A stretch of 64,000 nt of DNA from Dipteris shenzhenensis (GCA_047967505.1 CM106538.1); one strand, 5' to 3'. Shown: positions 19,362-61,721, counted from the first letter of the stretch. The notes: generated by a model from the letters alone, not told the origin. Program-made: numbers and translations.

Positions 19362-19425
19362 GGAGTGGGAATTGAACCCAAGACCTCCCCATTCACAAAA
19401 GGGAGACTTATCAATGGGCCAGCAA
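19362..19425 (-). other. tRNA-like motif (A-box/B-box), antisense in the retroelement leader
   Basis: Minus strand: tggcccattgataag...ccctt ttgtgaa tgggg aggtc ttggg ttcaatt cccac; B-box GGTTCAATTCC; no acceptor stem found. Confidence 0.6.
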
Positions 19426-19635
19426 ATAGGAAGTGATGAGAATGTAATGATTTTGCTTATATATTGAAATCTCGAGAACTGTAACTCTCTAACCGTGGGG
19501 AGTTTCCTCTTGCTGCAAAAAGCAAAAGTATTTCATTTCATGTGCTCTATTCACATCTCCTACTAGATCGCCGATTCGGAACTTTTTCAAGTTCACTTCT
19601 TGGGGACGCACGCCACATGAGGAGGGTGGATATTT

Positions 19636-20046: not shown

Positions 20047-20270
20047 TGTTTCAACCAAGGAATCCCTTTGTACCTAATCAACCCTTTGTGCCTCATTTTG
20101 AGCTTTAAGTTGTAATTCTTTTTGGTCTAAAGATAAACTATCAACAAAGGATTGCAAGTTTATTTGGTGCTGAACGTCTTGCTCAAGTGTTGAATTCTCC
20201 CCACCCTCTCCTTCTACCTATCTTGGATAACCGAGAAACTTGGGATGTTTGGATTTTGGTCTTGGTGTAA
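20046..20270 (+). pseudogene. Accessory ORF2 (74 codons; one CAA>TAA stop here, open in copy B)
   Basis: Exactly 225 nt between two TAATG junctions; copy B 40769-40993 is open (MFRPRNPFVPNQPF...ILVLV). Confidence 0.6.
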
Positions 20271-20734
20271 TGACATCTTGGCTACTTCAATTTGACGGAG
20301 CATACAAACCTTCGACCAAGGCTGCTGGTGTGGGTGTGAAGCTCACTTCACCGAGGGGTGAGGTGTATTATTATAGCAAGTTTGCACTTGCGAGTACTTG
20401 CAACCAAGTTGAGTACTCGGCACTCATTTTTGGGCTACAAAAGGCACAAGAGCATCACATCAAGCAACTTGAGGTGCAGGGAGATTCTCAACTCGTGTGT
20501 GAACAAGTTAGTGGAATGTGGAAGGTGCGGAGTGAAGGCTTGGTTCCATGACATCAACAAGCATTGGAACTATGCCAACAATTTGAAGAGGTAAACATTC
20601 AGCATATCCCTCGAGCTCAAAATATAGTTGCTGATTTCTTGGCACATGAAGCTTGTACTTCAATCACGCATGACGCGAGTGGAAGCACCACCCCAACAAA
20701 GCCGCAAGCCACAAAGGAGGGTGATCATTTGTAA
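20270..20734 (+). pseudogene. Free-standing archaeal-type RNase HI (aRH), 154 codons with one internal TGA
   Basis: LQFDGA...GVGV...CNQVEYSALIFGL...LEVQGDSQLV...W.V...QHIPRAQNIVADFLAHEA: D-E-D-D catalytic set with Arg in the HIPR motif; stop at 20549-20551. Confidence 0.85.
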
Positions 20735-20870
20735 GGAATGCAAAGGTTGTGGTCATCATGAAACTAAGTGTTGGGCATATTTGATACGAGTTTACCGACT
20801 TCGAAAGATCATCAGAAAGGTCCTCAAGGACATTGCTCAAAAGAAGGATGCCAGACTGCACACCCCTTGA
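20670..20870 (+). CDS. Small basic CCHC zinc-knuckle ORF (66 aa)
   Basis: CKECKGCGHHETKC = CX2CX4HX4C followed by an R/K-rich stretch; open in both copies (41394-41594). Confidence 0.6.
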   Translation: MTRVEAPPQQSRKPQRRVIICKECKGCGHHETKCWAYLIRVYRLRKIIRKVLKDIAQKKDARLHTP

Positions 20871-21012
20871 AGAAATAGCATGGCGATTACAAGAACTGGA
20901 AGAAGCTAAAGGTGATGTGCAAGCTCTCCAACTGTTGACATTTGTCATGGAATTCTTGTTTGCCTTGATGAACAACCTCATTCAGCGCCGTGTCTCTAAC
21001 CCTCTCTTGTAA
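20848..21012 (+). CDS. Accessory ORF5 (54 aa), unknown function
   Basis: Manual translation MPDCTPLEEIAWRLQELEEAKGDVQALQLLTFVMEFLFALMNNLIQRRVSNPLL; overlaps the previous stop; copy B has ATG>ATA and CAG>TAG. Confidence 0.4.
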   Translation: MPDCTPLEEIAWRLQELEEAKGDVQALQLLTFVMEFLFALMNNLIQRRVSNPLL

Positions 21013-21028
21013 AGATGGATGTGATATC

Positions 21029-21244
21029 ATGAGGGTTGGTCCTTTTAAGATTGTCTATGAGCTATTCTATGCTGAAGATTCTTCCCGTGTACTATTTCAC
21101 AATACACCAGTCACATCCTGCCCTGCCTATGTGTGCTTTGTGGATGTATCTTCACCTGATTTTCAGTTCAAGCTACTCTTTCCATTGTTTGCCCATAGAT
21201 TAGCCTCATTTCGTCTCTCTTTTCCATTTTCCAAGCATGGCTGA
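21029..21244 (+). CDS. Accessory ORF6 (71 aa), unknown function
   Basis: MRVGPFKIVYELFY...FSKHG; ATG lies in an ATGA overlap with mini-ORF 21015-21032; stop overlaps the gag start (ATGGCTGA). Confidence 0.45.
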   Translation: MRVGPFKIVYELFYAEDSSRVLFHNTPVTSCPAYVCFVDVSSPDFQFKLLFPLFAHRLASFRLSFPFSKHG

Positions 21245-22200
21245 CATTCTCGTGTTCTGTGGATGGGTTGAAGAAAATACAAATGAGTATCTTGTGGCTT
21301 TCAAGTGCCGTTGTGTTTCTCTCAACTTTCTTACTGAAGATAGATGGCTGTTGGTTCTTCCCACATTTCTAGAGGGTTTGGCTCAAGTGTGGTATGAGAA
21401 GTAGGCTGATGACATTTGCCAAAGCTGGCCAAGGTTAACAGCAGTGATGATTGAGTATTTTGGCAACAAAGAAGAGGAGTCGAAGAATGTGTACTTACAG
21501 GTGGCAAACTTGAAGCAGTCAGAAGGTGAGACGACGCATCGATATGTGGATCGAGCAGCCGTGCTCCTCGACCGTTTAATTGCAATGCAGGAGGACAATG
21601 CCAGATTTTGAGCTAGAATGACTCAGCATGTGCTGGGCTACCTTATAGCAGGAGCAAGTGACGAATTCTGCCTCAAGCTTAAATGGGAGAATCCAGAAAC
21701 TATGGTGCTAGCACATGAGATTGCTCAAAAGTTTGATAAAGTTCAGTCTGACCCCGCTTCAAAGAAGACGATTGTCCCTTCGCAACCCCCTCAATTCTTG
21801 CAACAACAACCTGGGGGGTCTAACTCAGGGGCATACCCCCACCCCTCATCAGGGATGTATCCACCACCTCCACCTCAAATGTATGGTCCTCCCTTAGATG
21901 CTTACCCTCAACAAGGAGTATATCCTCAACCTCCACCTGGAAGATTTCCCCAACCTCGCCCACGAGCCCCCCTCCTTCCTACTCCCCCGGCCCCTCCTGC
22001 TAAAGAACCCGGGGTCAATGACCTAGCCAAGGCCCTGAATGATCTTTGGCTTGAGATGGTGGGCATCAGAAATCAATCCAATCGCCTCCAAGAGAACGTG
22101 CTAATGTTGTGTGCTACGAGTGCCACCAGAAGGGTCATTATCGCACAGAATGTTCCTATATTCCAAGGGTGAATCTTCTAAGTGAATCAAGCACTGAGGA
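21237..22200 (+). pseudogene. Gypsy gag remnant (copy A)
   Basis: MADI.VFCG...FLEGLAQVWYE...NLKQSEGET...YV, Pro/Gln-rich linker, CYECHQKGHYRTEC; stops and frameshift. Confidence 0.85.
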
Positions 22201-22399
22201 TTGGGGGGCATTCTTCAGTTCTATCTCTGGGTAGACGTTGTCCTTCTCAATGCAAGCCAATAGACTATTACAAAGCATAGGAGAGTGCTTGTGTGCTTCA
22301 AACAAAGCTCTCACGTATCAAGAGTCTTTGAATCATTAAAGCAAGGACACATGGTTCACAGTACCGATGTTAGATATTGGAGTTGTTTCAATAATTGGT

Positions 22400-32797: not shown

Positions 32798-35440
32798 TGT
32801 TGGTAAGCTGAAAGGAAAGCAAAGAGTGGACACAAACTCAGAATACTTGCATTATGGAATGAAGAAGAGTGAGGTCCTTAAGTAGGCACCTCATACATGC
32901 TCATTGACATCACTGATGACTTCAGAGCTCCACAATCATCTCCTCAATCTACTCCTAGATTCTCTCAATCATCCTATGTGGCTCTCCACCACCTAACTGT
33001 GCTTGTGGGCACCTAACTGTGCCTCTAGCACTCACACATAGAAACCAAGGTGTGCCTGAGGCATACACCTTGAGATATCCCATCAAACCCCCCCTCAAGG
33101 GAATGCCTCAGGCTATGTCAAGGATACATCTAGTCTCATAGTTTCTCATGCCATCTCATGGTGGTCAAGGATAAATCTATGGCTAGGTTCTCATGCTAGC
33201 AAGGGTTCCCATGGGTGTAAGGTAAACAAAAAGGGATACAAAAAGACCTTCCAATGGTTATCTCCCCTGCATGTACATGCACACAATGTCTGCAGGAGGT
33301 ACCATGGAGCAAAACATACACATGGCCTACATCATAAGGTGACCAGAGGTGTTTACAAAACACACAAAACACAATAATTTATTTCATTCATTTTGAAGGA
33401 CTATCCAGGCTGAGTACCTTGACATAAAAAGAGAGATCTGGAGCATACATAGAGATGATTTAAAATGCATAATCTTCAAAGGATGCCTCATCTTGTGGAG
33501 GCTCATCAACTGAAAGTAGATTTGCATTTTCAGTCTTTGCTTTGGCTCTGCAAAACTTCTCATGATGGTTGTTCTTGCCATAGTGTTTGCATGGGTTAAT
33601 TTTGAAGCAATCCTTTGAAAGGTGATTTGTCTTTCCACAGTGATTGCAAGGGGTATACTTGCCCTTCTGGACTTTTATAGCATAAACAGTGTCATTGCCT
33701 TTCCTGAGCTCCATATGCCTTTCTTTTTCTTGGAGAGCAGAGATAATACCTTCAAGATTAGGATTAGGAAGATTCTTCAAAGTGGTAACTATGTGATCAT
33801 AATCTTCAGGCATACTCTTAAGTAACACTGCCATAGCATCATCTGGAGTAATAGGAGAGTTGATAGAAGTTAATTGAGTCATAAGACTCCGCATATAGTT
33901 GACATGAGCTGCCAAAGTAGTGCCACTAACCATCTTCAATTCAAAGAAAGAGATTTTAAGTGATAATTTAGAGATGTGAGAGCTAGCACCAAAAATCATG
34001 TCAAGCTTCTGCCAAGCTTTTGAAGGGGACTCTAAGTCAGAGATGTGGTGAATATAATCATCTCCTAAAGCAAGAGCAATGATACCATATGCTTTCTCCT
34101 CTCTAGCGGGATCCCTTGCCGGGCGTGTCGGAGTTGAGGATTCTCCAGCATTGGAGGCTGTAGAAGAAGCAGTTGGAGTTGGTTTGACAAGTCCCCAGAG
34201 GTTCTCCCTCATCAATGCAAATTTCACCTTCATCTGCCATGTGTGGAAGCCCTTTCCATTGAACTTCTCTAGATTCAATAGGGTAGCCATGAGAGGGTCT
34301 AACCTAGATATTGGGCAGTGTCTTTCTCTCTTACAAGGCAAAAAATAACTGAAAGGCTTCCAAAATATAAGCACTTGATGTAGCAAAGACTAGTATATTC
34401 AATCAATGATGCTTCTTCTTACATGCTTCATAGAGGTGGCTAAAATGAATACTTTCCAATCAAAACCAGGTCTAGCAATTCAAAGAAAAACTGAAGCCAC
34501 ACTTGTACTGATGCTATTAAAAACTTCAAAAACTCAGAAGTGCTAGAGTAGCATTTTATGTAGCATCATCTTCAAAAACTTGTCAAAACTGTCAAAACCA
34601 AAGGACTAAACTTAGAGGGCTTATAGCTCACTCTTCAAAGCAAGGAAAAGAGGGCTTCATGAAGCAAAAGAAAGCTCATATACCAGAGAGGATCTAGCAC
34701 AGAGGTTGGACGAAATGGTGCGCGCTATTGCCCGGGGGAGTTGCTGCAGGCTGAACCTGAGTTTTGACAATTTCTCCTTTGTTACTAAACCAAATGAGCT
34801 GAAAAATGACTCAAAATCTTCGTCTTGAGGTCGCCCATCTACTCCTAAGAGGGCTCAAGCAATGGCGCAGCAGGCAGGGAGTATTGAGCAATAGAAGAAT
34901 GGCAAAAAAATGCACTGTTTGAAGAATGGCAGCCAACAGAGATGTTTTTTTTTCAATTGCTTGCAGGTGAAAGTTTGCCCATACTAGAGGAGTTTACAGC
35001 TCAGAGGGTTTGGGCAATGGTCATTTGTAGGCAGAGAACCAAGCTCTCAAAGATTTTGGGAAGAAGGAGGAAAATGGGGAAGAAGAAGATGAAGAAGAAG
35101 AAGATGATGTGGCAGAAATGGGCTCAAGGGGGATCAAAGGGCTCTGATACCATGTTGGTAAGCTGAAAGGAAAGCAAAGAGTGGACACTAACTCAGAATA
35201 CTTGCATTATGGAATGAAGAAGAGTGAGGTCCTTAAGTAGGCACCTCATACATGCTCACTGACATCACTGATGACTTCAGAGCTCCACAATCATCTCCTC
35301 AATCTGCTCCTAGATTCTCTCAATCATCCTATGTGGCTCTCCACCACCTAACTATGCTTGTGGGCACCTAAATATGCCTCTAGCACTCACACATAGAAAC
35401 CAAGGTGTGCCTAAGGCATACACCTTGAGATATCCCATCA
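32798..35440 (-). mobile_element. Complete gag-only LTR retrotransposon (TR-GAG-like), 2643 bp
   Basis: LTRs 32798-33085 and 35153-35440 (288 bp, TG...CA, about 7 mismatches by eye); TSD AGATG at 32793-32797 and 35441-35445; PBS-Met 35141-35152; PPT from 33086. Confidence 0.95.
33460..34290 (-). CDS. gag: Copia-type Gag, 276 aa, intact
   Basis: EKFNGKGFHTWQMKVKFALMRENLW; DAMAVLLKSMPEDYDHIVTTL; knuckles CNHCGKTNHLSKDC and CKHYGKNNHHEKFC; no pol downstream. Confidence 0.88.
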   Translation of the reverse strand: MATLLNLEKFNGKGFHTWQMKVKFALMRENLWGLVKPTPTASSTASNAGESSTPTRPARDPAREEKAYGIIALALGDDYIHHISDLESPSKAWQKLDMIFGASSHISKLSLKISFFELKMVSGTTLAAHVNYMRSLMTQLTSINSPITPDDAMAVLLKSMPEDYDHIVTTLKNLPNPNLEGIISALQEKERHMELRKGNDTVYAIKVQKGKYTPCNHCGKTNHLSKDCFKINPCKHYGKNNHHEKFCRAKAKTENANLLSVDEPPQDEASFEDYAF

Positions 35441-38550: not shown

Positions 38551-39540
38551 TGTTATGGATAAATTTGTCTAAGGAAAAAGGCATTAATATGTGTGTGTGT
38601 TTGTATGTGTGGCAATAGTATAATAAAATATGGTGTGCATAGGGCCCAGGGTTGAGGTGGCAGGGCATGACCATGTGCCACTCTTCCACATAAGAGGACC
38701 CATAAGGTGTGTTGTACATAATCCATGGTAGTAATATTATAAAATGTAAGGTGGCATGGATCCTCCATGTGCCACCCCTCCACCTAGGCTGCATTTAGTG
38801 AGATATGGCTCAAAGTCTATGGGAGAAGTAATATAAAATAGGTGGAGATGGATATTATATTGGGTTATTCCCTCCATATAGGATAGGCCCATGTGGGGGA
38901 GGTATAAAGGTTCAAGAGAGCAAGTTAAATAATGGGGAAAGTAGGATGAGATGGCAAGATTCCTTGTGCCAACCCTCGACTTGTCCTCCTAGAGGTTTGA
39001 ACGTATTATAAAATTGGGAAGAGACCAAGGGAGTATCATAGACGTGAGATATGGGGCTTGATTTATGTGGAAAAATGAGGCAAAGGGTTGTCGCACACAA
39101 TTGAGAGTGCGTAACCGCCTAGCCCACATGGGAGACTTTTCCACACACACCATGCATGTGGGAGGATGCATTTATTGGGAGAGACCCCCTCTCTTGGCTA
39201 TAAAAGGAGGGGGCTATTCCTTGATGGGACACGCTCATTCTTGTAAAGCCACCTAGCTAGTACTTTGATTTCTCCTTTCCCTTCCTTTCAAAATAAAGCA
39301 TGGTCCTCTTCCCTTGATGTCTCCATCTTTACATTCCTCCTCCCATAATGTACATGCTTCTCTTCCCCCTCTCCCTTTCCCCTTGTGTCATAGTCTCCCT
39401 CTTCATTCCCTCCCCTTCTAATTCCTTTTCCCCTCCCATGATAACGTTTCGCCCTCACGTTCTCCTTTCCTCTATGGCCCCCGAGCATTGCCATGCTTAG
39501 CCTCTAGCCCCTGGTCCTGATTTCTTTTCCAGCTAATAGA
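38551..39540 (+). mobile_element. 5' LTR, about 990 bp (TG...GA)
   Basis: Highly similar to 57622-58620; tataaaagg at about 39198, aataaa at about 39292; PBS 2 nt downstream. Confidence 0.85.
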
Positions 39541-39542
39541 AA

Positions 39543-39560
39543 TGGTGTGGTTGCTGGGAT
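39543..39560 (+). promoter_or_regulatory. tRNA-His primer-binding site
   Basis: tggtgtggttgctgggat, 17/18 to the recalled complement of the plant tRNA-His(GTG) 3' end TGGTGTGGCTGCTGGGAT. Confidence 0.8.
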
Positions 39561-40086
39561 CAAAATCTCCATGGCTAGTGGTGTAAAACCTGTTAATCCT
39601 ATGACTAGGTGCGGCTCTGCAGCCTCTTCCATACATAGTTCTCTACTTTTGCACCTCCAAACTGTGTACCTTCCCTGTCCCTACGGCCGCAAAACCTTCC
39701 TTCTTTTGCACTTTTAGTCTGCCTGCTTTCTGCTTACGGTTCCTACGTGTATTCTGGCTGGCAAATCTTCTTCTCATATCGGTCGCATCTGTAGAACTGT
39801 AACATCTGTGCTCCTTTTGAGTTCCTGCCCGCGCATTCGATTCGCGCGTCTACTGTGTTCACCTGCATGACAGTTTTTTGGGCTCCTGCATCTTCTGGTT
39901 GCGAACAATTTTCTTGCTTGACACGTCTACTGTGTTCACCCGCGCGACAGTTTTCTAGGCTCCTGTGTCTTCTGGTCACGGACAGTTTTTCTGAGTTTCT
40001 GCAAAACTCTAACAGTAGATCCCGCGCCCCCCCCCTCTCTTCTCTTTCTCTTCTCCTTCTCCTCTCCTCTCCTCTCTTTTTATTAA

Positions 40087-40150
40087 AGAGTAGGATTTGA
40101 ACCCAAGACCTCCCCCTTCACAAAAGAGAGACTTATCATTGGGCCAACAA
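40087..40150 (-). other. tRNA-like motif antisense in leader (copy B)
   Basis: Minus strand: tggcccaatgataag..ctctt ttgtgaa ggggg aggtc ttggg ttcaaat cctac. Confidence 0.6.
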
Positions 40151-40768
40151 GTTGGAAGTGATGAAAATGTAATGATTTTTGTTTATATATTAAAATCTCG
40201 GGAACTGTAACTCTCTAACCGTGGGGAGTTTACTCTTGTTGTAAAAAGCAAAAGTACTTCATTTCATGTGCTCTATTCACATCTCCTGCTAGATTGCCGA
40301 TTCGGAACTTTTCCAAGTCCACTTCACGGATGCACGCCACACGAGGAGGGTGGATATTTATGTCACTTCTCGACGAGTTTAAGGATTTGGTGCCTGGTCC
40401 TCCGCTCATTACGGCTACCAATTGGCAAGATCTCTTTCTTGATCTTCATGTCAACCTTCAATGGCTGATTGTCGAGTGCATTGTTCAAGGAGACGACGGG
40501 TGGGATGATACACCGTGGTTGGTTCAAGGTGAAGAACTATTGATACGCTGGGAGAACTTTGATTTTAATTCTACTTTGTGCAGTGATCTGAGCTACTTGC
40601 TGCTTCGGAGGTAATTAAAAGGGTGTCCTTCATCGAAGGGTGGGATGCTCCCCAAGCTTTGGGGGAGATTTGGTGAATCTGCTTGTTAATTCCTATGGAT
40701 AAGCTCGTCTTGAATGGTTTATTCTCAATCTCACTACAAAGGTTTCTAGGCCTCGGCTATGGTTGGTA

Positions 40769-40993
40769 ATGTTTCGACCAAGGAATCCATTTGTACCCAA
40801 TCAACCTTTTGTGCCTCATTTCGAGCTTCAAGTTGTAATTCTTTTTGGTCTAAAGATAAACTATCAACAAAGGATTGCAAGTTTATTTGGTACTGAACGT
40901 TTGGCTCAAGTGTTGAATTCTCCCCACCCTCTCCTTCTACCTATCTTGGACTACCGAGAAACTTGGGATGTCCGAATTTTAGTCTTGGTGTGA
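40769..40993 (+). CDS. Accessory ORF2 (74 aa), open
   Basis: Bounded by TAATG (40767-40771) and TGATG (40991-40995). Confidence 0.6.
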   Translation: MFRPRNPFVPNQPFVPHFELQVVILFGLKINYQQRIASLFGTERLAQVLNSPHPLLLPILDYRETWDVRILVLV

Positions 40994-41458
40994 TGACATC
41001 TTGGATCCTTCAATTTGATGGAGCTTACAAACCTTCAACCAAGGTTGTTGGCGTGGGTGTGAAGCTCACTTCACCGGGTGGTGAGGAGTATTGTTATAGC
41101 AAGTCTACACCTGCAAGTATTTGCAATCAAGTTGAGTACTCGATGCTCATTTTTGGGCTACAAAAGGCACAAGAACATCACGTCAAGCAACTTGAGGTGC
41201 AAGGAGATTCTCAACTAGTGTGTGAGCAAGTTAGTGGAAGGTGGAAGGTTGCGGAGCAAAGGCTTGGTTCCATGACATCAACAAGCATTGGAACTTTGCA
41301 ACCAATTTGAAGAGGTAAAAATTCAGCATATCCCTTGAGCTCGAAATCTAGTTGCTGATTTCTTGGCACATGAAGCTTGTACTTCAATCACGCATGACGC
41401 GAGTGGAAGCACTACCCCAACAAAGCCGCAAGCCACGAAGGAGGGTGATCATTTGTAA
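40993..41458 (+). pseudogene. Archaeal-type RNase H (copy B), frameshifted
   Basis: FDGA, NQVEY, QGDSQLV, ADFLA motifs; +1 insertion near 41250 and TGA stops. Confidence 0.85.
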
Positions 41459-41594
41459 GGAATGCAAAGGTTGTGGTCATCATGAAACTAAGTGTTGGGC
41501 ATATTTGATACGAGTTTACCGACTTCGAAAGATCATCAAAAAGGTCCTCAAGGACATTGCTCAAAAGAAGGATACCAGACCGCACACCCCTTAA
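41394..41594 (+). CDS. Small CCHC zinc-knuckle ORF (copy B)
   Basis: CKECKGCGHHETKC, open reading frame of the same length as in copy A. Confidence 0.6.
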   Translation: MTRVEALPQQSRKPRRRVIICKECKGCGHHETKCWAYLIRVYRLRKIIKKVLKDIAQKKDTRPHTP

Positions 41595-41963
41595 AGAAAT
41601 AGCATGGCGACTACAAGAACTGGAAGAAGCTGAAGGTGATGTGCAAGCTCTCCAACTGTTGACATTTGTCATGGCATTCTTGTTTGCCTTGATGAACAAC
41701 CTCATGTAGCGCCGTGTCTCTAACCCTCGCTTGTAAAGATGGATGTGATATCATGAGGGTTGGTCCTTTTAAGATTGTTTATGTGCTATTCTATGCTGAA
41801 GATTCTTCCCGTGTAGTATTTCACAATACACCAGTCACACCCTACCCTGCCTATGTGTGCTTTGTGGATGTATCTTCACCCGATTTTCAGTTCAAGCTTC
41901 CTTTTTCTATTGTTTGTCCATAGATAAGCCTCGTCTTGTCTCTCTCTTTTCCATCTTCCAAGC

Positions 41964-44900
41964 ATGGCTGACATTCCCGTGTTTTGTGGATGGGTGGAAG
42001 AAAATCCAAATGAGTATCTTGTGGCCTTCAAGCGCCGTTGTGTTTCTCTCAACTTTCTTACTGAAGACAGATGGCTGTTGGTTCTTCCCACATTTCTAGA
42101 GGGTTTGGCTCAAGTGTGGTATGAGAAGCAGGCCGAAGACGTTCGCCAAAGCTGGCCAAGGTTGACAGCAGCAATGATTGAGTATTTTGGCAAAGAAGAG
42201 GAGTCGAAGAATGTGTACCTGCAGGTGGCAAACTTGAAGCAGTCAGAAGGTGAGACGGCGTGTCGATATGTGGATCGAGCGGCCGTGCTCCTGGACCGTT
42301 TAATTGCCACGCAGGAGGACAATGCCGGATTTTGAGCTGGAATGACTCAGCATGTGTTGGGCTACCTTATAGCAGGAGCAAGTGACAAATTCCGCCTCAA
42401 GTTTAAATGGGAGAATCCAGAAACTATGGCGCTAGCACATGAGATTGCTCAAAAGTTTGAGAAAGTTCAGTTTGACCCCGCTTCAAAGAAGACGATTGTC
42501 CCTCTGCAACCCCCTCAATTCCTGCAACAACAACCTGGGGGGTCTAACTCAGGGGCATACCCCCACCCCTCATCAGGGATGTATCCACTGCCTCCACCTC
42601 AAATGTATGTTCCTCCCTTAGATGCTTACCGTCAACAAGGTGTATATTCTCACCCTCCGCCTCGAAGATTTCCCGAGCCTTGCCCATGAGCCCCCCTCCT
42701 TTCTACTCCCTCGGCCCCTCCAGCTAAAGAGGCCCCCCCTGCAACAAAACCTGGAGTAAATGACCTAGCCAAGGTCCTGAATGTGATCTTTGGCTTGAGA
42801 TGGTGGGCATCAGAAATCAAGCCAACCACCCTCCTAGAGACCGTGCTAATGTTGTATGCTATGAGTGCCACCAGAAGGGTCATTATCGCACGGAATGTCC
42901 GAATATTCCAAGGGTGAATCTTCTAAGTGAATCAGGCATTAAGGATTCTGATGTAGAGATCCTTGACCTTGGGAAAAGAAGTCGTACCACCTCGGACCCC
43001 TCTCCATCCGGGCCACCCCAGGAAGAAGGTGTCCTTCTCAGAGCCCTCAGATGCTGAGATGGCAGACCCACCAACAGAGAAGACTAAAAGATCCCGTAGG
43101 AGTAAGTGGTCGCCCTTGGATTTTCCTATCGGCTTGGGGCAAGAAGACTATTCGGTCGTTTAGGACCTTGCTCACCATTCTTTGAGCATCACGCTCCCTC
43201 AACTAATAGCATTAAGCCCTAAGGTGAGACGTGAGCTGTAGCAAGGGCTCTCAACAAGGAGGAGCAAGAAAAAATGAAAGGTACAAGAGGTATCTTCTAT
43301 CTCTGAAGAAATTGATCGGCACCCACATACAATCAATGTCATCATAGATAATTGCCGTGTCAAAAATATGTGTGCTGATGGGGGAGCTGCATGTAATATC
43401 ATGGTGCCCCGAATCATGATGAAATTGAATTTGAAATGTACAAGGCATTCCTCCACTCGAATCAAGGTAGCAGATGGTCGACGACTTGCCACCCTGGGAG
43501 TCATTGAGGATTTGCCCATCACTATCAATGGGTTGACCACCACCGTCAATTTCTATGTAGTGGACATTGAAGATACAGGTAGGAGTTACCCAGCCATACT
43601 CGGGAGACCATGGTTGAGAAAGAGTGATGCAATCAACTATTGGAAGACAAGACACATGTCTTTTGGTGCTTCTAAGGAGAAGATCCCGGTGCAACCAGGT
43701 GCCACAGAACCAGAAGAAGAAGAGGAGCAAGACAGTGATACTCTCTCATCCTCGGTGTTTGAATCAGTGGAAGAATCAGACAAGGGGGAGGAGTTCTCAA
43801 AGGAGGAAGTTTACATGATGGGGGTGTCTCCGACCCCACCACCTGCAGAAAAGGTAATAGCTAGTCCTCAATAGCTTGAATCTATGCTTTCCCCAGACCT
43901 CACTCCAAGTGAGAAAGATGAGTTCCTAGAAATGTTCAAAGATTTCCCTGACCTTTTCGCAACTAGCTACCGCCACCTTTGCCATGTGACTGCCATAAAA
44001 CACAAGATAGAGTTGAAGCCTGATGCGAAGCCTGTGGCTCAGAAGTATCGGAGATTAGGGCCCCTACAGACCGATGCTTTGCGCTCAGAGTTACAGAAAC
44101 TTGTAGAAGCTGGGTTTATTGTTCCGGTTCACAATACTGAATGGGTTTCACCAGTGGTAGTCACCCCAAAGAAAAACAACAAGTGACGGGTCTGCATCGA
44201 CTATAAGAAACTCAATGCGGCCACCAAGAGGGATCATCATCCTCTTCCCTTTCAAGACCTCATTCTTGAGAAGGTAAGTGGTCATGAGATGTATACTTTC
44301 TGTGATGGTTACTCTGGGTTTTATCAAATCAGTATTGCCGAAGAAGATGTGCTTAAAACCACATTTGCCACACCTTGGGGGACATTTGCATTCAAAGTAA
44401 TGCCATTTGGCCTCACCAATGCCCCTGCTACCTTTCAAAGATTTATGTAGATGGTGTTTGCTCCTTATTTGGGGGATTTCTTGGAGGTATTTTTAGATGA
44501 TTTTGTATATTCTCATCACGTAAGGAGCACGTCATGAAGGTTGGATTGGCCTTCCAAAGGGTCAATGATGTGAATGGCAGTCTCAACCCTCAGAAATGCA
44601 CCATTGGAGCCACTCAAGGGAGGTTACTGGGACATATTGTCTCATCTGAGGGCGTCAAGCCTGACCCCGAGAAGGTAGAAGCCATCCTCAAGCTCTCCCC
44701 ACCAACAACCAAATGTTAAGTACGCTCATTTGTCAATCTAGCAAGATACTATCGCCGCTTCATTGATCAATATGCTACTTTGACACGACCCATGACTATG
44801 CTATTAAAAGATGGGGTTGATTTCTCTTGGGATGAGGATTGTGATCATGGGTTTGCACAAATTAAGAGTGCTCTTGCTTCAGAACCCATTCTGCGCAATC

Positions 44901-44990
44901 CTGATTGGTCAAAGGCTTTCTATATCAATCCTGGGTTTGGTGAGCACACTCTGGCAGGTATTCTTCTCCAGCAAGGGGAGGATCGCTAAG
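41964..44990 (+). pseudogene. gag-pol remnant (gag, CCHC, protease, RT, partial RNase H)
   Basis: CYECHQKGHYRTEC; CADGGAACNIM...AILGRPWL; RT at about 43900-44760; ALASEPILRNPDWSKAFYI; several stops and frameshifts. Confidence 0.92.
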
Positions 44991-47365
44991 ACGTTGGATT
45001 GAAAGGTGAAAATTTTGATATAGACTCAGTCACAAGAGCCTCAACCTCTAGAGATATTGAAACTCGATTTTATGGAGCCAGGTGACACTTGGGAGAGGTG
45101 GAGAAAGAGAAAACAAGTGAGACACGAGTAGAAAAGCTTAGATCGAGGAGGATCATGGAGATGACCTAGATGAAACATATGGTAGAATTAAGTAGATAGA
45201 AGATGTGTATTTCTATTGAGTAGATGGAAACATGACTTAGATGATGCATCTAGTACAATTGAGTGGAAAGAAAGATCTGGATTTCTATTGAGAGTTTTGT
45301 AAATATGTTTGGCCTGAATATGAGTTCTTGAGACTTTTGTGAATCTGTATGCTTTGAATATTTAAGCAAGGAGGCATTAAGCTTACTTCATTATCTTGAT
45401 AGCACTTTTCTATTCTTTTTGTAAGTTATGTCTGGTTTGGATAGCATTGAGTAGAATATACTCTACTATGTGCAACAACCTAACATGTATCATGTGGTCT
45501 TTTAAAAGAAACACAAAGATCAAGGGAAGGGAAAAAATTCCAGACTTAGAGATTACATAGAATAGATTGATATTTTGAGATATAGTAGAGGTCCTTATTA
45601 ACTTGTGGGCATGATGTTTGAAAATTGCATGAATTTAAGAAGTTTTAAAAATTTAACTACGCAAAATATGACTATATTTTGAAAAAGTTATAATTTTAAT
45701 TATTTTTTAAAGGGAATCTTAAAATGGGTACCAATGTTACGTGCCCAAAATAGATGCTACACTATTCAATGTTTTAAGCCCGCAATGAAGTAGCTCCATA
45801 CATATGGAGTGCATTTTCTAAAAATAATTTGCTTTCCAACCAAATAAGGAAAAAGTTATCGAGTGTGCCCCCAAATGTATGCACATGATTGTAGTGCAAT
45901 ATTGGACACCCCCTAAACCATAGCAAAGGTTATCAATTCATTGCCTCCTCTGGTTTGTGGGAAGCTCAAGTAGTACACTTTTCAACTGAACAATTGCTTC
46001 CATATATGTGTGGAACAATTATCAGATGTTTTTAAAATAATTTGAATATCCTATATAGTCCAAGATACATCCTTCATAGGCATAGTAGCATTTATAATAG
46101 TTTAACGATCTCATTCAAGATGCCGATCGTGTAACTATGTAATGTTTTGATTTGATCTCACATTCAAGGATTAGTTTAGGCAGCCAATTTGTCAATTTCC
46201 ATCGAGCAACACATAAGTTACAAATTGAGCAAGTTATCCATATGCAATATATTCCCTAAGCTTCACAAAAAATGCCTACGTGCATTCATGCATTGGCCCT
46301 ATAGGCAGGCACAAACTTTAGGAAGAGTTGTTACAATTGAGAGTGTCATGTGTCCCTTGTATGTCTGATTGAGATTGGTTGATGTTGCTAGACTATCCTA
46401 GAAAGCACCCTTAGGTGTTAGGGAGGGAGAATTTAGAAGATAGTAATTACATGTATAAGAAGAAGTGGGCTAGGAGCCCTAAGCTTGGTTGTGGGAGGGG
46501 GCCATGATATTCCTAGTCACATATGGTTAACCAATTGCAATGACCCATTATGGATTAGCACTATTTAGTGGTCTATCTGCAGCCTTTGAATCAAGTTGGT
46601 GATCGGTAGCTTTTGGGTTGGCTTGGACTATAATGACATTATTGGGCTACCCACTTTGATATGATAATTAGCTACTATTGGAACTTGTTAGTATTTTAAA
46701 GAAGATCAACAACGTAAACTAAATTACTATAGTGATATTAGCTCTAACAAGTTGTCTATTGGCTCAATTAGTGAGAGATAAGGTTCAAAATTGACTCAAA
46801 AAGGTTGTGATTAGGCCATCCCCAAGACTTTGGGTATGATGATCGAATTGGGGTTCCATAGAATTCCAAACCCATGGATAGTATGATGCCTTCTGAATGA
46901 ATGTATGTTGGACCCCTATTCTTATTCGAGATCAAAAGGTGAAGGCTTCATGCAGGTGTTGCAAGGAGATACAACTAGTGGGGTTCTGAGGCATCATCTC
47001 ATAGCATCACCACCATTACAAGAGAAAGTCTTCTTATGATGACACGAAGCTTGTGAGTTCCGAAACGGATGGAACAAATGTATGCCATGTATGAGCAGAA
47101 AGACCGGAGTACATGCGAGCGATGTTCAATGTATGCCATGTACGAGGACAGAGAGGGAGTACACGAGAGTGCTTAAAATTTGAAACCTACTTGTTGTCAA
47201 CGGCTAGCATAAACGAGATGAGATTAAGGAAGGATTAGTGCTAATGAGGGTAGAAACCGGTTTTAGTAGAAGGGGCCAAGGTTCTTCCTTTCCCGCTCTG
47301 CTGCCTCAATTGTGCCTCGCGAGCTCTCTTCTCTGTCCATCAAGCTCAAGCTCAAGCTCCCAGCT

Positions 47366-50300
47366 ATGTCGCTCCGACCCAATGCTCGCGCTGAGAGCCG
47401 CAAGAAGACCTACAAGATCTCTGTCGACGCTGATGAAGCCCGCCGCAAGCGTGAAGACAACCTCGTCGAGATCCGTAAAAGCAAGCGCGAAGAGAGCTTG
47501 CTCAAAAAGCGCAAGGAGGGCTTGCCCCCCCAGCAGCAGCAGCAGCTTGGCTCCGGCCTCCAGTCCAGCTCCATCGAGAAGAAGGTATGGCCCTGCCTGC
47601 CCTTTTCAATCCAAGCGAACTTTTAGCGATCCTCCCTCGGTGCGTGCGAAAGAGTCCCTCTTGGATTCTCTTGCCCTTGCTATCCATTTTTTTGGGTTTA
47701 AGATTGCAAGCGCTGTAATAACAGCATCTGGGTTTGTACGGGCTAGGAATTGGATTCTTGTCTATGTATTTTGGTATATATTGCCCTTCATGGTGCCCTA
47801 GCAGCAGTTTAAGAGCGCTGCTCCTCTTTCTGCAGCTGGAGAGTTTGCCGGCGATGGTGAGTGGAGTTTGGTCTGAAGATCCGAATACGCAAGTGGAGGC
47901 TACATATCAATTCAGGAAGCTTCTTTCTATCGGTAAGCACTCTCTGCTTGATAAGTAACGCTCGTCACCCTGCCCATTCGGTCATATCTGAGTCTGCTCT
48001 TAACCTCCTCGGTCTGTCTGTGTACAGATGTGTGATAATGAAGTGTCACATACGTAGGAATGTCTGTTGTTTGAAGCTTGATGATTGGACGTTTGCCGAT
48101 AACCTGGGTGCTAACACTGGGCTTTCAATTGGTTTATCCTGGCTATCTCCTTACGCCTACTGTATGCTTGTGCTTACCTTGCCACTAGTGTCAACCTTCT
48201 TATAAATCCATGTGCTTTCTTATTCACAGAACGCAGTCCTCCTATTCAGGAAGTCATCCAAGCTGGGGTGGTTCCTCGGTTTGTTGAGTTTCTTTTTCGA
48301 AGCGACTTCCCTCAGCTGCAGGTACTCAGCAGTGTTTTTTGAGGAGGATCTGATGAATGACAATAAAGGTAGCTTGTCAAAAATGTATTTTGTTCTCCTG
48401 CAAGCACAGGGCTAAAGCTTAAGGATTCAAAATCTATAGGTTTGTACCCTGGGCATGACGCAACTATATTATGACGCAATCCATATTATGACGCAACTAT
48501 ACATGCATGTAGTCCGTTTGTATGTACACAATTGCAGATAGAGATTGTGCACACACGCGTAGGTAGGCAGGCAGGCACTCACTCTCTGTCCCTCACGTGC
48601 ACACTTCTCTACACCTGCAATATAAGTTAATCAAATTTGTGTAGATGCTGATATTGCATGCTTTATATAAGTGAACGGAAATAAATAAAATGTAGATATT
48701 TATGTAGCCCCTACTGCCTGCCCACTTATTTGGACCCTTTGGAGGCATCATTCCATTTGCACTGCCAAGTTCGCAAGCCTGTAGGTTTGCCCGAGTCTTT
48801 CAGCAGATAAGATATTTTTTTCCTGATTGAACCTAAATTAATCGGTTACTTGCTTATCCAGTTTGAGGCAGCATGGGCTTTGACCAACATTGCGTCTGGA
48901 ACTTCAGATCATACTAGAGTAGTCATAGATCATGGTGCAGTTCCTATCTTTGTGCAGCTTCTCAGCTCTCCTGGGGACGATGTCCGCGAACAGGTATTGC
49001 TTTTTATTAGCATTTTCTATCTCTTATGTTATACAGTAGGACTTCAAATAGAAACTTTTACCAGAACAGGAAGGAACCATGTGTAATAAGGGTTTTCCTG
49101 CATGGTGATGATTGTATGAGTGCCCCAATGTTTTTTTTAAAAGAAAGAAAGGTGTGCTTTCAATAACACATGTAAAAATGGGTTCAGGCTGTGTGGGCTT
49201 TGGGAAATGTTGCCGGTGATTCACCAAAGTGCAGAGATCTGGTTCTTAGTCAAGGTGCCATGTTACCGCTTCTCAGTCAACTGAACGAGAATGCAAAGCT
49301 TTCAATGCTTCGGAATGCAACCTGGACCCTCTCAAATTTCTGTCGTGGAAAGCCTCCGCCTCCTTTTGAGCAGGTGCTTTGGGATAGAGCTTCTCTTGTT
49401 TTTCAGGCTAGGTTTCAGGATTTTATCTAGTTTTGAGTCCTTTGGGGATGCGATTAAGAATCTAGCATTTTGCAGGCTTAATTACATTTGAACATTGCAA
49501 ATTTTCCTTCATGTTCTTACTTGTGTCCAGACCAAAGTTGCTCTGCCTGCTCTTGAGCGGTTGATCCACTCGATGGATGAGGATGTTCTGATAGATGCTT
49601 GCTGGGCACTCTCATATCTCTCTGATGGCACAAATGATAAAATTCAGTCTGTAATAGAAGCTGGGGTCTGTAGAAGGCTTGTCGAGCTACTAATGTGAGG
49701 ATAAGAATTCATTCTGAAGGACACTCATGCTATCACTCAACCTGATGTTATAGACCTGCAAGATATGACTTTTGATGTGTGAAATGCATGATTCATGTTT
49801 CCCAGTCACCTTTTAATTGCTGGTCGGTTCTTGGTGATGTTTCAGGCACCCTTCTCCGTCTGTTCTCATACCTGCCTTAAGGACAGTGGGGAATATAGTC
49901 ACAGGGGATGATATACAGACACAGGTCAGTTCCTTGTTACATCATGTGCATGTTTTACGTACAACTTATGGAAACTGTCTGTAAGCTTTGCTATTTCTAT
50001 AGCATGATCATTATAGGTTGTTGTATCGTGCCTCATCATATTATGAAACGACTATTTTCACAGATCATGATCAACAACCAAGTGCTTCCTTGCCTTCTGG
50101 TGCTGCTCACTCATAACCACAAAAAAAGTATCAAGAAAGAAGCATGTTGGACCATATCAAATATCACAGCAGGGAACAAAGAACAGATTCAGGTATGCCA
50201 TTATTATACTAAGAGCTAAACTTTATCTTTTAGGGTTGTCCGCTTACTTTTTACTATCTATGGCTTTCAGGCTGTAATTGATGCAAATATTATATCTCCT

Positions 50301-50934
50301 TTGGTAGCATTGTTGGGTTCTTCGGAGTTTGACATCAAGAAGGAAGCTGCCTGGGCAATGTCAAATGCAACATCAGGAGGAACTCATGAGCAGATTAAGT
50401 ACTTAAATTTATGAGATTAAAACTGAACACTGTTGTGTTCTTAGAGGATGAGTCTGGGCATGTTTCTGAATTCATCTAGCTATAATTAACTGTTCACCCA
50501 AAAAAAGGTATTGCTCTGGGGAGCTGCTGAAGTTTGTGCTTTTGGTATTGAGATTGTGCAGATATCTTGTGAGTCAAGGTTGCATCAAGCCATTGTGTGA
50601 TCTTTTGAATTGCCCCGATCCTCGTGTCATTACTGTTTGCTTGGAGGGGCTTGAAAATATATTAAGAATCGGTGAGGCAGAGAAGGACCTTGGGCATACA
50701 AGTGGCATCAATATGTATGCCCAGTTTGTGGATGAGGCAGATGGCCTTGAAAAGATCGAGAATTTGCAGACACATGATAACACAGACATATACACGAAAG
50801 CTGTGAAGCTTCTAGAAAAGTACTGGTTGGAGGAAGAGGAGGATCAGAATCTTGCAGCTGCTGGCACTGATCAACCTGCTTATAACTTCGGTGGATATCA
50901 GCAAGTTCCAAGTGGAGGTTTTGACTTCACTTGA
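47366..50934 (+). CDS. IMPA: Importin subunit alpha (IBB domain + ARM repeats), 10 exons, 532 aa
   Basis: Exons 47366-47584, 47836-47932, 48230-48321, 48862-48993, 49188-49373, 49531-49694, 49846-49924, 50064-50192, 50271-50398, 50562-50934; all introns GT-AG, phases consistent, total 1599 nt; motifs [63 protein letters not shown]. Confidence 0.97.
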
Positions 50935-57621: not shown

Positions 57622-58750
57622 TGTTATGGATAAATTTGTCTAAGGAAAAAGGCATAAATATGTGTGTGTGTTTGTATGTGTGGCAATAGTATAATAAAAT
57701 ATGGTGTGCATAGGGCCCAGGGTTGAGGTGGCAGGGCATGACCATGTGCCACCCTTCCACGTAAGAGGACCCATAAGGTGTGATGTACATAATCCATGGT
57801 AGTAATATTATAAAATGTAAGGTGGCATGGTTGCTCCATGTGCCACCCCTCCACCTAAGCGGTCCCATGCCTCCATTTAGTGAGATATGGCCCAAAGTCC
57901 ATGGGAGAAGTAATATAAAATAGGTGGAGATGGATATTATATTGGATTATTCCCTCCATGTAGGATAGGCCCATGTGGGGGGGTATAGATAGTCCAAGGA
58001 TGCAAGTTAAATAATGGGGAAAATAGGATGCAGTGGCAAGATTCCTTGTGCCAACCCTCCACTTGTCCTCCTAGAGGTTTGAACATATTATAAAATTGGG
58101 AAGAGACCAAGGAAGTATCATAGACTTGAGATATGGGGCTTGATTTATGTGGAAAAATGAGGCAAAGGGTTGTCGCACACAATTGAGAGTGCGTAAACGC
58201 CTAGCCCACATGGGAGACTTTTCCACACACACCATGCATGTGGGAGGATGCATTTATTGGGAGAGACCCCCTCTCTTGGCTATAAAAGGAGGGGGCTATT
58301 CCTTGATGGGACACGCTCATTCTTGTAAAGCCAAGTAGCTAGTACTTTGATTTCCCCCTTCCCTTCCTTTCAAATAAAGCATGGCCCTCTTCCCTTGATG
58401 TCTCCATCTTTACATTCCTCCTCCCATCATGTACATGCTTCTCTTCCCCCTCCCCCTTTCCCCTTGTGCCATAGTCTCCCTCTTCATTCCCTCCCCTCCT
58501 AATCCCTTTTCCCCACCCATGATAACATTCGCCCTCATGTTCTCCTTTCCTCTATGGCCCTTGAGCGTCGCCATGCTTAGTGTCTATCCTCTTGTCTTGA
58601 TTTCTTTTCTAGGTAATAGAACTGGTGTGGCTGCTGGGATCGAAATCTCCATGGCTAGTGGTGTAAATTTCCTTCTCCTACGACTGGGTGTGATTCTGTG
58701 ACACCTTTCATCTGTGGTTCTCAGCTTCTGCACCTCCAATCTACTTCTGG
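57622..58750 (+). mobile_element. Third piece of the His-primed Gypsy family: 5' LTR 57622-58620, PBS 58623-58640, short leader
   Basis: Colinear with 38551-39660; tggtgtggctgctgggat is 18/18 to the recalled tRNA-His complement. Confidence 0.88.
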
Positions 58751-58754
58751 TTGA

Positions 58755-61721
58755 CTTGGATCTCAACTCATCTGGCACATGAACATAGGCAATGCAACCA
58801 AAAACTTTCAAATGAGAAATATGTGGTTTCCTACCAGTATACCTCTCCTTTGGCATCATGCCATGTACTGCTACAGTGGGAGTCCTATTCATTATGTAGA
58901 CTACTGTAGCAACTGCTTCAGCCCAATAATAATATGGTAGGTCTTTTTCGTTGAGCATGGCACGAGATACCTCTCCAATATGCCTGTTTTTCCTTTCTGC
59001 AAGTCCATTTTGTTGTGGGGTATGACTACATGAATATTGCTGCTCTATGCCATGCTCCTGTAGGAACTTTGCAAACTCATTTGAGAGGTACTCTCCCCCT
59101 CCATCTGACCTTAGGCATTTTATTTGCAGGCCTATTGCTTTCTCAACCATAGCTTTAAAAGCTTTGAAATTCCCAAACACTTCACTTTTCTTTTTCATAA
59201 AATACACCCAAACTCTTCTGTTGTAGTCATCAATAAAAGTGACAAAATAATGACAGCCTCCAATAGATGCAGTTTTAGTAGTCCACACATCAGAGTGGAT
59301 TAATTCCAATAGCCTCTTACTCTCTTGAACATGTCTAGGAATGGTTTCCTTGCCTGTTTTCCAAATTGACAGGCTTCACGTACCTTATGCATTTCTGCAA
59401 CCTTGAACTTAGGTAATCCTGCAATAATATTTTGGGCTTGCATTAATTTAAGTCGTTGTACATTAACATGACCAATGCGTTTATGCCAGATATCAATATC
59501 TGCAACTACACCAATCCCATGTGCAAACATTGTTGCACTCAATTCAAGCATGTTCACATCCAACGTAAACATCCTGCCCTTCTTCTTCACTTTTGCTATC
59601 AAGCGACCTTTATTTTTCATATCCTCAACAAAGCATCCATGAGGATTAAATCTGACCTACAAGCCCTACTCAACCATTTGACAAATAGAAACCAGGTTCT
59701 TGGTGATATTCGGGACATGAAATACATCAGACAGGTATTTCTTTTTCCCATCCTGCATACACAAAGGAATTTTACCAATCTACACAATAGGATGTGCAGT
59801 ATCATTACCAGTCTCCACAAATCCTGGTCTTTCCATTTTCCTTGCATCTTGCATCCATTCTGCATGACCTGTCATGTGGTTTGATGCACCTGAGTCAACA
59901 GACCACACATCATTGCTTTCTTCTGCACTTGTCACAGAATTGGTCATGTGCTGCACCATAAACAAATGCTCATTTCTGTCATCACCCTATCTACTAGAGG
60001 ATGCATAATTGCCTTGCTGCAATTTTCCAGTTATGATGTCATTCTGCTTTTTATAGCAGTCTTTAACCATATGACCCATTTTACCACAGTATCAACATTG
60101 CTGTTTGCATTTTGGCCTCTCTGCCATCCACCACGACCTCTTTGGCTCCCCCTACCTCTAAAGTTACCACGTCCTCCTCCATAGGACTGGTTTTCTTAAA
60201 TTTGCTACATATTCTGATTTTTGCCATGGCCTCCAGATCGGATTGGTCTACCTCTGCCTCTACCTCTTCCAACATTTGAGTAGCAGACAGTTTCTTTTAA
60301 AGTTCCTCCTGAAGAAGATGCACCACCATTTCTCTGCTCTTCAGAAATTAGAAGAGCAATCAACTCCCCAAAATCAGGAAAATTCTCATGGACGGCAATG
60401 GATGTCCGGAACTATGCATAATCCTTTCCTAGACCATTCAAGGTCACAGAAACTAAATCATCATCTTCCACTGGCGAGACCCGATGGAAGCAAGTGCATC
60501 TGCAATCTTCTTCACCTTCATGAGGTAGTCATTGATGCTCATATTTTCTCTCTGCACATTATGCAACTCCTGCTTGAGCTGCATTTTCCTGGCTTGCGTA
60601 TTTGTGCTATACATTTTTGTCAAAGTATCCCATGCCTCCTTCGGCGTGCTTGCATCCTGAATATGCACAATCATAGAATCTCAAATATTGATAAACAGCC
60701 AGTACATAACTTTTATGGCTCTCTCATGCCATCCTTTAAATGCGTGCAACTCTTGTTGATTGGGAACATTAGGAATAACTGGTTCTTGTTCAGCTCCAGT
60801 AATGAACTCCCAATAGCCTTTTCCCTTAAGGAAATGCATCATTCTAAACTTCCATGCTTGGAAGTTCTTCTTGTCAAGCTTTTCAGTGACTATCTGTGAA
60901 AGAGCATCAGACACCATTACAGAACACAGCAAAAATATTCTGTCACTGCAAAAAACACAACTTCTGCCTCACAAGGGCAAATCTGCAAAACTGACGAAAG
61001 TGGTATTTGACCACCCAGTCACTTCCTAGTGACGATTTTGCATCAACAGGCAATAAGAATGATTATGTCACTCCCAATATCTCTGTGCAGAGGCATATGA
61101 TGCAATTTCTATGGCAACTTTTCATCGACCTGCAGAACAGTGGTCGCACAGCAAAAACAAGGCACTTTTCTGAGTGCCTACGGAAAACTTCCGCCACCAA
61201 AACGGGCCCCGAAATGGCCTCGAATCAAAAAAATAATGTCACCAAGGGCTTGGCCCTATCTCGCAACATATACTGCCCTCTCGCCACACCGCGAAGGGCG
61301 TCCCAATCTGAGACAGTGCACTCTTGCACTTTCCGGCTATGCTTCCTGCAAAGATTTGCTCCCAAACTCGAAAAAGGAAAGCAAATTGATCCTCTTACCA
61401 AGACACCGCAAACTTGGTTTGCTTTCTTGAGCTCCTTACCACGAACCAGGCTCTGATACCATGTGAAGAGAGTGGGAGAGAAGTAAGGAGTCTCACTTGC
61501 AGCTTTCTCACATACACAATGGGGGAATATACACAAAGGTGGAGGCTGAAGACAGTTTTCCTCTTCTTAGTTGTGAAAGCCAAAAGAACTCTCTAAGTAC
61601 AAAAGGAATAGGTGAACCCTATATGTGGGTCTCAAACCAAACTCAGCTAACTAAGGTGGCATACTAACTGAGCCACTAACTAGAGTACATAAGGATAGTT
61701 GTCATCCAACTATAATTCATG
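58755..61721 (-). mobile_element. Ty1/Copia, 5' half: LTR (about 61462-61721), PBS-Met, gag, protease, GAG-pre-integrase, integrase
   Basis: gctctgatacca 61450-61461; EKLDKKNFQAWKFRM; WSVDSGASNHMT; WHKRIGH; HSDVW...FIDD...LRSDGGGEY...PQQNGLAERKNR; RT, RH and 3' LTR absent. Confidence 0.92.

Follow-up and report, generated by a model that had tools for sequence, protein, structure and literature searches.

Two dead copies of a probable pre-capsid Tat retrotransposon, with a separate archaeal-type RNase H reading frame upstream of gag, in the fern Dipteris shenzhenensis

Results

The window, its host gene and its two element copies

The window, i.e., the whole 64,000-nt stretch of Dipteris shenzhenensis DNA that was analyzed, is plant nuclear DNA with a G+C content of 40.7% and a CpG observed/expected ratio of 0.31. 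It holds two related retroelement copies, A (19228-22202) and B (39967-42947), which are 90-91% identical over 2.9-3.0 kb. Copy B extends beyond the stretch matched in copy A, to about position 44986. The features are listed in Table 1. Part of the stretch was present in 12 of the 16 public sequencing runs listed and half of its words in none of the 16; among the runs listed, no RNA run contained it. Contigs of four runs (X1, X2, X5 and X4) covered the element from 38501 to about 45010 at a likeness of at least 80%, as well as the importin-alpha exons, with no cover on 46313-47180. A search of the whole window against Rfam at the gathering threshold gave 0 matches.

The importin-alpha gene starts 2.4 kb downstream of the truncated copy B. 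Its exons were taken from RNA-like contigs; all nine introns (9/9) are of the GT-AG type, the 533 codons contain no internal stop, and splicing as predicted was seen in contigs of two RNA-like runs. In a phylogenetic tree, the protein was placed in a 100-supported clade with nine of nine fern rows (Ceratopteris, Adiantum) and two rows without a species label. Rows of Sphagnum, Diphasiastrum, gymnosperms and angiosperms lay elsewhere in the tree, and the best identity of the protein was 87%. By this gene, the host of the element is a fern, though neither a Ceratopteris nor an Adiantum.

Other repeats are scattered through the window. The weak matches to fern Tat polyproteins near its start (25-30% identity) appear, from their sequence, to be another, more distant gypsy remnant. 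One member of the short repeat listed in Table 1 lies 1.5 kb upstream of copy A, and its partner 1 kb past the truncated end of copy B. CCHC knuckle patterns also occur on the minus strand, at 33607-33648 and 60056-60097, one of them with an internal stop; these are presumably nucleocapsid remnants of other retroelements.

Table 1. Coordinates of the features in the 64,000-nt window.
Feature	Position	Strand	Remarks
Gag-like and protease-like matches	5973-6503, 8245-8559	+	weak, to fern Tat polyproteins
Short repeat	17479-17724 and 45988-46232	+	73-77% identity
Leader, copy A	19228-20269	+	weak similarity to copy B from 19051
Leader ORF, both copies	19636-20046 and 40330-40614	+	94-136 aa
aRH ORF, copy A	20270-20734	+	154 codons, ATG to TAA; DEDD present; one in-frame TGA
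Antisense ORF in spacer, both copies	20664-20981 and 41412-41705	-	97-105 aa
Gag, copy A	21237-22202	+	broken, truncated at 22202
Candidate 5' LTR, copy B	38552-39655	+	TG...CA; TATA-like box near 39200
Leader, copy B	39656-40992	+	candidate LTR to aRH ATG; 16 ATG triplets; ORF at 40330-40614
aRH ORF, copy B	40993-41458	+	broken; own ATG and TAA; one extra base, two in-frame TGAs
Spacer, copy B	41459-41963	+	aRH stop to gag ATG; 505 nt
Gag, copy B	41964-43054	+	Retrotrans_gag; stops and frame changes
Protease and RT, copy B	43278-44513	+	two in-frame stops, then a frame change
RT C-terminal/tether region and start of native RH, copy B	44519-44986	+	element ends here
Importin-alpha gene	47366-50934	+	intact; 10 exons; 533 aa; IBB and Arm repeats

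An archaeal-type RNase H reading frame in both copies

In each copy, an ORF lies upstream of gag that opens with its own ATG (20270 in A, 40993 in B) and closes with a TAA (20732-20734 and 41456-41458, respectively). In copy A, the motifs FDGA (residue 8), NQVEY (45), QGDS (70), HIPR (112) and ADFLA (121) supply a DEDD tetrad, i.e., D9, E48, D72 and D122, with H112 and R115 coming from HIPR. The copy A translation, with an X at its stop, matched the Pfam RVT_3 profile from position 2 to 123 of 123 (E 4.4e-27), and RNase_H (PF00075) at E 3.1e-07. For copy B, the longest open piece (ORF 40897-41307) matched RVT_3 at E 2.1e-11. The PDB relatives found by sequence were type-1 RNase H chains, namely 4e19 (E 2.8e-17), 3hst, 2ehg, 3aly (ST0753), 3u3g and 4h8k, of which we take 4e19 and 2ehg/3aly to be archaeal enzymes. 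Judged by sequence, the ORF is an archaeal-type, type-1 RNase H (aRH) domain with a DEDD tetrad.

Both ORFs are interrupted. They share an in-frame TGA, which lies at codon 94 of copy A (20549-20551) and at 41273-41275 in copy B. Copy B additionally has a single extra base at 41249, which is missing from contigs in three of the four runs, and reads TGA at 41336-41338, where HIPR has its arginine. Both aRH ORFs in the window are dead, and both copies are inert.

A Pfam scan of the 60 plus-strand stop-to-stop ORFs of at least 60 aa between 38303 and 58937 found no endonuclease, LINE RT or zf-RVT domain. The aRH domain begins three residues after the ORF start. In layout, the ORF differs from a plant LINE (L1) ORF2, in which the RNase H forms the C-terminus of an endonuclease-RT protein.

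Intact relatives and coding constraint

A protein search identified two proteins, P0001 and P0002, each of 154 aa and 80-81% identical over 100% of the 154 residues; both are carried on short ENA contigs, and the next-best matches reached at most 43% identity. The clusters of these two proteins have 25 and 8 members, i.e., 33 in total, and the figures that follow come from the 23 that were listed. Amongst these, 14 are 154 aa long with the same first and last residues and share 89-99% identity with one another. The residues D9, E48, D72, D122 and H112 are invariant in 14/14 of these intact relatives, and R115 is kept in 13/14. Variable columns are fewer in the domain (20/130) than in the C-terminal tail (10/24; Fisher p 0.009). 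Comparison of the two window copies gave a pN/pS of 0.36 for the aRH frame and of 0.51 and 0.84 for the other two frames, values based on 37 differences.

At the site of the TGA that is shared by both window copies, all intact relatives have an arginine. Three of the nine shorter listed members are 93 aa long, which is the length of the truncated ORF of copy A. The common TGA and these 93-aa members together suggest that part of the aRH family may be long dead.

Further copies were sought in several ways. Among the pieces listed from the four runs, no contig bridged the aRH to gag in other copies; a metagenome scan with P0001 for full-length copies returned one unrelated locus (33% identity); and the Protein Atlas returned only generic RVT_3 clusters for P0001. 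One cluster member, P0437, is carried on an 8128-bp contig.

Taken together, the two window copies and the 14 intact 154-aa relatives, with the same limits and an invariant DEDD tetrad, argue that the stand-alone aRH ORF is a family trait and not a nested insert. Limits that are fixed, in an ORF that is open in many copies, are unlike those of a nested passenger fragment.

Leaders and element ends

A 1.1-kb LTR-like repeat precedes the leader of copy B (Table 1), and one X4 contig bridges the end of this candidate LTR into the leader (39452-39863). A second copy lies at 57622-58667 on the plus strand (93.7% identical, with about 70 nt more at weaker similarity). It is followed by unrelated sequence, and thus represents either a solo LTR or the terminus of a different element. 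The two LTR-like repeats, about 19 kb apart, bracket copy B and the importin-alpha gene. Judged by eye, no TGG-led primer-binding site adjoins the candidate LTR end. No polypurine tract, 3' LTR or target-site duplication of either copy was found in the window, nor any LTR upstream of copy A.

The leader ORF shared by the copies matched no Pfam family at E up to 0.1. For its copy A version (19636-20043), the Atlas gave no family and a recognition of 2086, short of the 2300 mark. The ORF is unlikely to be a gene.

Copy A breaks off in gag, at 22202, and copy B at about 44986, inside the native RNase H (RH). A tblastn search of the whole window with six related proteins detected neither an integrase nor a second aRH, and the pol match stops at 44974. 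The copies are thus fragments. No full-length copy was seen, and both end before the site that a pol-internal aRH would occupy.

The spacer and gag

The gag ATG (21237 in A, 41964 in B) follows the aRH stop by 502 nt in copy A and 505 nt in copy B, a gap that is unrepeated in the window apart from the A/B pair. The spacer (41373-41900 in B, and its counterpart in A) is the best-conserved stretch between the copies, at 96-99% identity versus about 91% overall, and a cis-acting RNA role, e.g., in packaging or internal initiation, is possible. In copy B, the ATG of gag is preceded by 14 other ATG triplets within the spacer, which would make simple reinitiation at gag awkward. The antisense ORF in the spacer (scanned as 20664-20978) had no Pfam match at E up to 0.1. 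Gag of copy B was recognized by Retrotrans_gag in ORF 41928-42332 (E 3.5e-06) and by a CCHC nucleocapsid knuckle at 42857-42898 (ORF 42764-43054; E 0.0012, just under the curated cut-off).

Upstream of the knuckle of gag itself, a perfect C-x2-C-x4-H-x4-C zinc knuckle, CKECKGCGHHETKC, is encoded on the plus strand at 20730-20771 and 41454-41495. Read in the +1 frame, it begins at the stop codon of the aRH and is contained in ORFs that span 20628-20867 (A) and 41352-41591 (B) and have no Pfam match at E up to 0.1. Six such patterns were observed in the window, compared with 0.05 expected from 100 shuffles. In the frame of the knuckle, 5/5 differences between the copies are non-synonymous, by which the ORF resembles a relic more than an active coding segment. 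Joining of the knuckle to the aRH protein by a +1 frameshift was also considered; the same five differences, and the silence in the aRH frame of both differences that fall in the overlap, leave it unsupported.

A further reading would make the aRH the last, 3' ORF of another element lying in tandem upstream, with gag belonging to the next one. Such a post-integrase aRH exists in gymnosperms, according to the text of PMC10508981 (structure #3), and the window holds no 3' end of the family with which to compare. However, the gap from aRH to gag is only 502-505 nt and recurs nowhere beyond the A/B pair, an integrase match occurs nowhere in the window, and the candidate LTR is upstream of the aRH and not between it and gag; we consider this arrangement highly improbable.

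The initial annotation had described an aRH recognizable by its motifs in both copies, with the HIPR arginine intact in copy A, as a separate ORF with its own ATG and stop about 500 bp before gag. The profile match, the DEDD residues, the measured gaps and the intact relatives of the same limits bear this out, with the qualification that in-frame TGAs interrupt both copies. It had also named a nested insertion or an upstream tandem element as what would undo this description. In the window there is no integrase upstream of the aRH, no LTR between aRH and gag, no repeat flanking the aRH segment and no LINE domain nearby.

Pol, its degenerate native RNase H and the RT lineage

In copy B, gag is followed by an aspartyl protease (ORF 43278-43871; E 6e-4, below the cut-off), RVT_1 (ORF 44187-44447; E 8e-13) and RT_RNaseH_2, marking the start of the native RH (ORF 44720-44986; E 1.4e-08). 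As no aRH lies between protease and RT, structure #2 is excluded. The presence of the native RH is as first annotated, but its first catalytic Asp is already lost: in an alignment with relatives, copy B reads INPGFGEHTLAG (NPGFG) in place of the DAS of canonical gypsy elements. The position is NPSVG in dual-RH fern relatives, and copy B thus shows the type of loss that is found where an element relies on an aRH. The truncation of copy B falls before the remaining three catalytic positions. A loss of catalytic residues in the pol RH, for which the initial annotation had advised looking, is thereby seen at the first Asp.

A search with the protease-RT read-through of copy B retrieved mostly Adiantum nelumboides polyproteins, at 45-76% identity. 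Twelve relatives were scanned for domains: ten have the order RT, RT_RNaseH, RVT_3 and, where present, integrase (structure #1), and RVT_3 is absent in two. A quick IQ-TREE analysis was then performed on 90 rows, i.e., the window read-through (370 residues, with X at four breaks) and the 89 of 120 hits that aligned over at least 300 residues. The window sequence had as its sister group (SH-aLRT 95) a clade with a support of 99, made up of 48 rows that are all fern or without a species label and of which 37 have an aRH. It fell inside a 91-supported group that includes a Marchantia element, apart from the Pinus and angiosperm gypsy rows, and its long end branch (0.55) is as expected for a decayed copy. 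Going outward, the next outgroup is P0056/P0058, followed by the Marchantia element. From this tree, which was built on rows other than named Tat A-L or Athila references, the RT of copy B is assigned to the Tat lineage.

P0056 and P0058, which are carried on ENA contigs, have a Tat-like pol with a degenerate native RH (NPTAS, HAGLL) and no aRH between RH and integrase. These elements may keep their aRH in a separate ORF.

The RT placement raises the question of a second aRH inside pol. The family could have retained the usual pol-internal aRH (structure #1), in which case the 5' ORF would be a second, redundant aRH, in a layout outside the published list. The nearest RT relatives are of structure #1 (aRH in 37/48 rows; RH-aRH-integrase order in 10/12), the pol of copy B is cut at 44986, before the position of an internal aRH, and two aRHs have a precedent in structure #5, as described in the text of PMC10508981. 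Against this, the DEDD tetrad of the 5' aRH is invariant in 14/14 intact relatives and its pN/pS is 0.36, which is hard to reconcile with a redundant copy in decay; in structure #5, it is the redundant aRH that is degraded (PMC10508981). In addition, the close outgroup P0056/P0058 combines a degenerate native RH with a pol that lacks an aRH. A retained internal aRH therefore seems unlikely, though of the alternatives weighed here it is the one that we take most seriously.

Lineage and origin of the aRH

An exhaustive HMMER search with P0001 retrieved 14423 proteins at E <=0.001, and identities above 48% were found only in fragments of the P0001 family. For tree building, 278 of 337 domain hits covered at least 80% of the model, and 277 rows remained with the fragments P0003-P0009 left out; the rows included no LINE RNase H. 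By FastTree, the window aRH group was placed in a 69-row clade (support 85) that takes in every LTR-labelled (Tat) aRH row of the tree (49/49). In a second tree, made by quick IQ-TREE from 83 rows (28 random outgroups and 55 inner-clade rows left after dereplication at 70%), the group was placed in a 25-row clade (SH-aLRT 91) with 13/13 LTR rows. In these free trees, the window group lies within a polytomy inside the Tat clade. When the window aRH was constrained to group with eight fern-type aRH rows, the tree was 29.4 lnL better than the free quick tree, with a p-AU of 0.888; sisterhood with the fern aRHs is thus not rejected and is favored by likelihood.

The nearest rows by path are P0300 and P0348, metagenome proteins labelled 'ribonuclease HI' in JGI/IMG. 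These are stand-alone RNases H of 135-138 aa, each found on 16-19 metagenome contigs, which would suit a repeated element.

The initial annotation had left two origins side by side, i.e., independent capture or relocation of an aRH, and had advised comparing the domain with Tat aRHs, plant L1 RH and cellular RNase H1. The aRH groups with the Tat aRHs and apart from the cellular RNase H1 rows; plant L1 RH is outside the rows of the tree. Since the window aRH falls with the aRHs of Tat elements, we favor relocation of an aRH that the lineage already had over a fresh capture. Two cellular sources that were considered for a capture, RNase H1 of the HBD type and SAP-multi-RNase H, were rejected, their rows lying outside the clade of the window aRH.

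Compared with the aRHs of 33 polyproteins, the window aRH shows 32-42% identity; for 32 of these polyproteins, the RT identity to the window, measured over a 191-residue piece, is 56-71%. Among the relatives themselves, aRH identity in pairs with an RT identity of 0.6-0.7 (n=28) is 0.47 on average and 0.39 at the lowest. By this comparison, the window aRH appears more diverged from its RT-nearest relatives than simple co-divergence would lead one to expect. Faster change after leaving pol would fit this excess, as would descent from a separate old Tat branch.

The same divergence could be taken to mean that the aRH is a functionless passenger, i.e., a fragment of a LINE or of another Tat element that was inserted in the leader of an ancestor. 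Both copies in the window are dead, ATGs are numerous in a leader to which no function is assigned, and a stray CCHC knuckle sits beside the aRH in another frame, all of which would suit a passenger. On the other hand, 14 intact variants have the same ORF limits and unchanged catalytic residues, variation is greater in the tail of the protein than in its domain, and pN/pS is 0.36. Moreover, the native RH has lost its catalytic Asp, so that some other RNase H would be needed, and neither a LINE domain (38303-58937) nor repeats flanking the aRH were found. We accordingly regard a passenger as quite improbable.

Discussion

The window probably contains two dead, truncated copies of a fern Tat Ty3/gypsy element with a pre-capsid (structure #4) layout, whose pol is seen only as far as the native RH. 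The layout would run from a candidate LTR through about 1.3 kb of leader, the 154-codon aRH ORF and about 0.5 kb of spacer to gag, followed by protease, RT and the degenerate native RH.

The arrangement is not new; it is already in the literature. Tat aRHs were described inside or at the end of pol (PMC4408406, Ustyantsev et al. 2015), and the text of PMC10508981 (Biryukov and Ustyantsev 2023) defines five aRH structures in Tat elements, reporting that the native RH is degraded in all of them and that the aRH phylogeny is unresolved. A separate aRH ORF before gag is structure #4 in that text and 'pre-capsid' in the text of PMC13468544 (Prokopeva et al. 2026), which credits the discovery to the authors of PMC10508981 and to Wang et al. 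In the main texts of both papers, the hosts of structure #4 are four mosses (Tat B) and Selaginella tamariscina (Tat C), ferns having structure #1 only, and the published origin is 'Bryophyta plus Lycopodiophyta'. In literature searches that covered main texts, we found no report of the pre-capsid layout in a fern. What seems to be new here is the fern host group, along with a position of the lineage as sister to the fern dual-RH clade.

How an aRH in a separate ORF could serve reverse transcription is a question asked in the text of PMC10508981. In active members of the family, the aRH may be translated from the full-length RNA as a separate protein, and this free aRH would supply in trans, during reverse transcription, the RNase H activity that the degenerate pol RH has lost. 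We infer a trans-acting enzyme from three observations: the active site is intact, the reading frame shows coding constraint, and the native RH is degenerate. The 5' position would have arisen by rearrangement or recombination of the lineage's own aRH, and not by a new capture.

A wider proposition, which we put forward tentatively and think less likely than not to hold in full, is that the pre-capsid layout arose or survived in ferns sister to the dual-RH Tat clade, and that a trans-acting RNase H has been kept by selection in a euphyllophyte retrotransposon. If so, either the aRH has left pol a second time, convergently, or structure #4 is older and more widespread than its published origin. 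A bolder version would have full-length members with both a 5' and a pol-internal aRH, i.e., a sixth architecture. In any case, a fern family would extend the known pre-capsid hosts past mosses and a single clubmoss, with a bearing on whether the layout had a single origin or multiple ones. The many intact 154-residue ORFs would offer a further natural set of proteins for activity and packaging tests. In the annotation of fern assemblies, a small stand-alone 'RNase HI' gene may be part of a retrotransposon.

Several known systems resemble the one described here. With the structure #4 Tat elements of mosses and Selaginella it shares a degenerate native RH, and its RT lies in a branch that also holds fern Tat elements; the difference is the fern host. 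The closest RT relatives, the fern dual-RH Tat elements of structure #1, have a similarly degraded native RH (NPSVG vs NPGFG) and an aRH of the same clade. Their aRH, however, is located in pol between native RH and integrase, whereas that of the window is separate and before gag. Structure #3 elements, which occur in conifers, Cycas and Ginkgo (text of PMC10508981), likewise have the aRH outside pol in an ORF of its own and raise the same question of how a free RNase H serves RT, but there the ORF is downstream of integrase rather than upstream of gag. Ogre and other Tat elements also have an extra ORF between the 5' LTR and gag, but these ORFs carry other domains, i.e., PMD or transposase-28 (text of PMC4408406), and no RNase H. 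Finally, in the dual RNase H of retroviruses, an acquired RNase H has replaced a native one that lacks catalytic residues and persists as a degenerate tether (connection), a replacement to which Tat elements are the plant parallel. The acquired retroviral domain is fused in pol beside the tether, whereas the aRH of the window is a separate gene.
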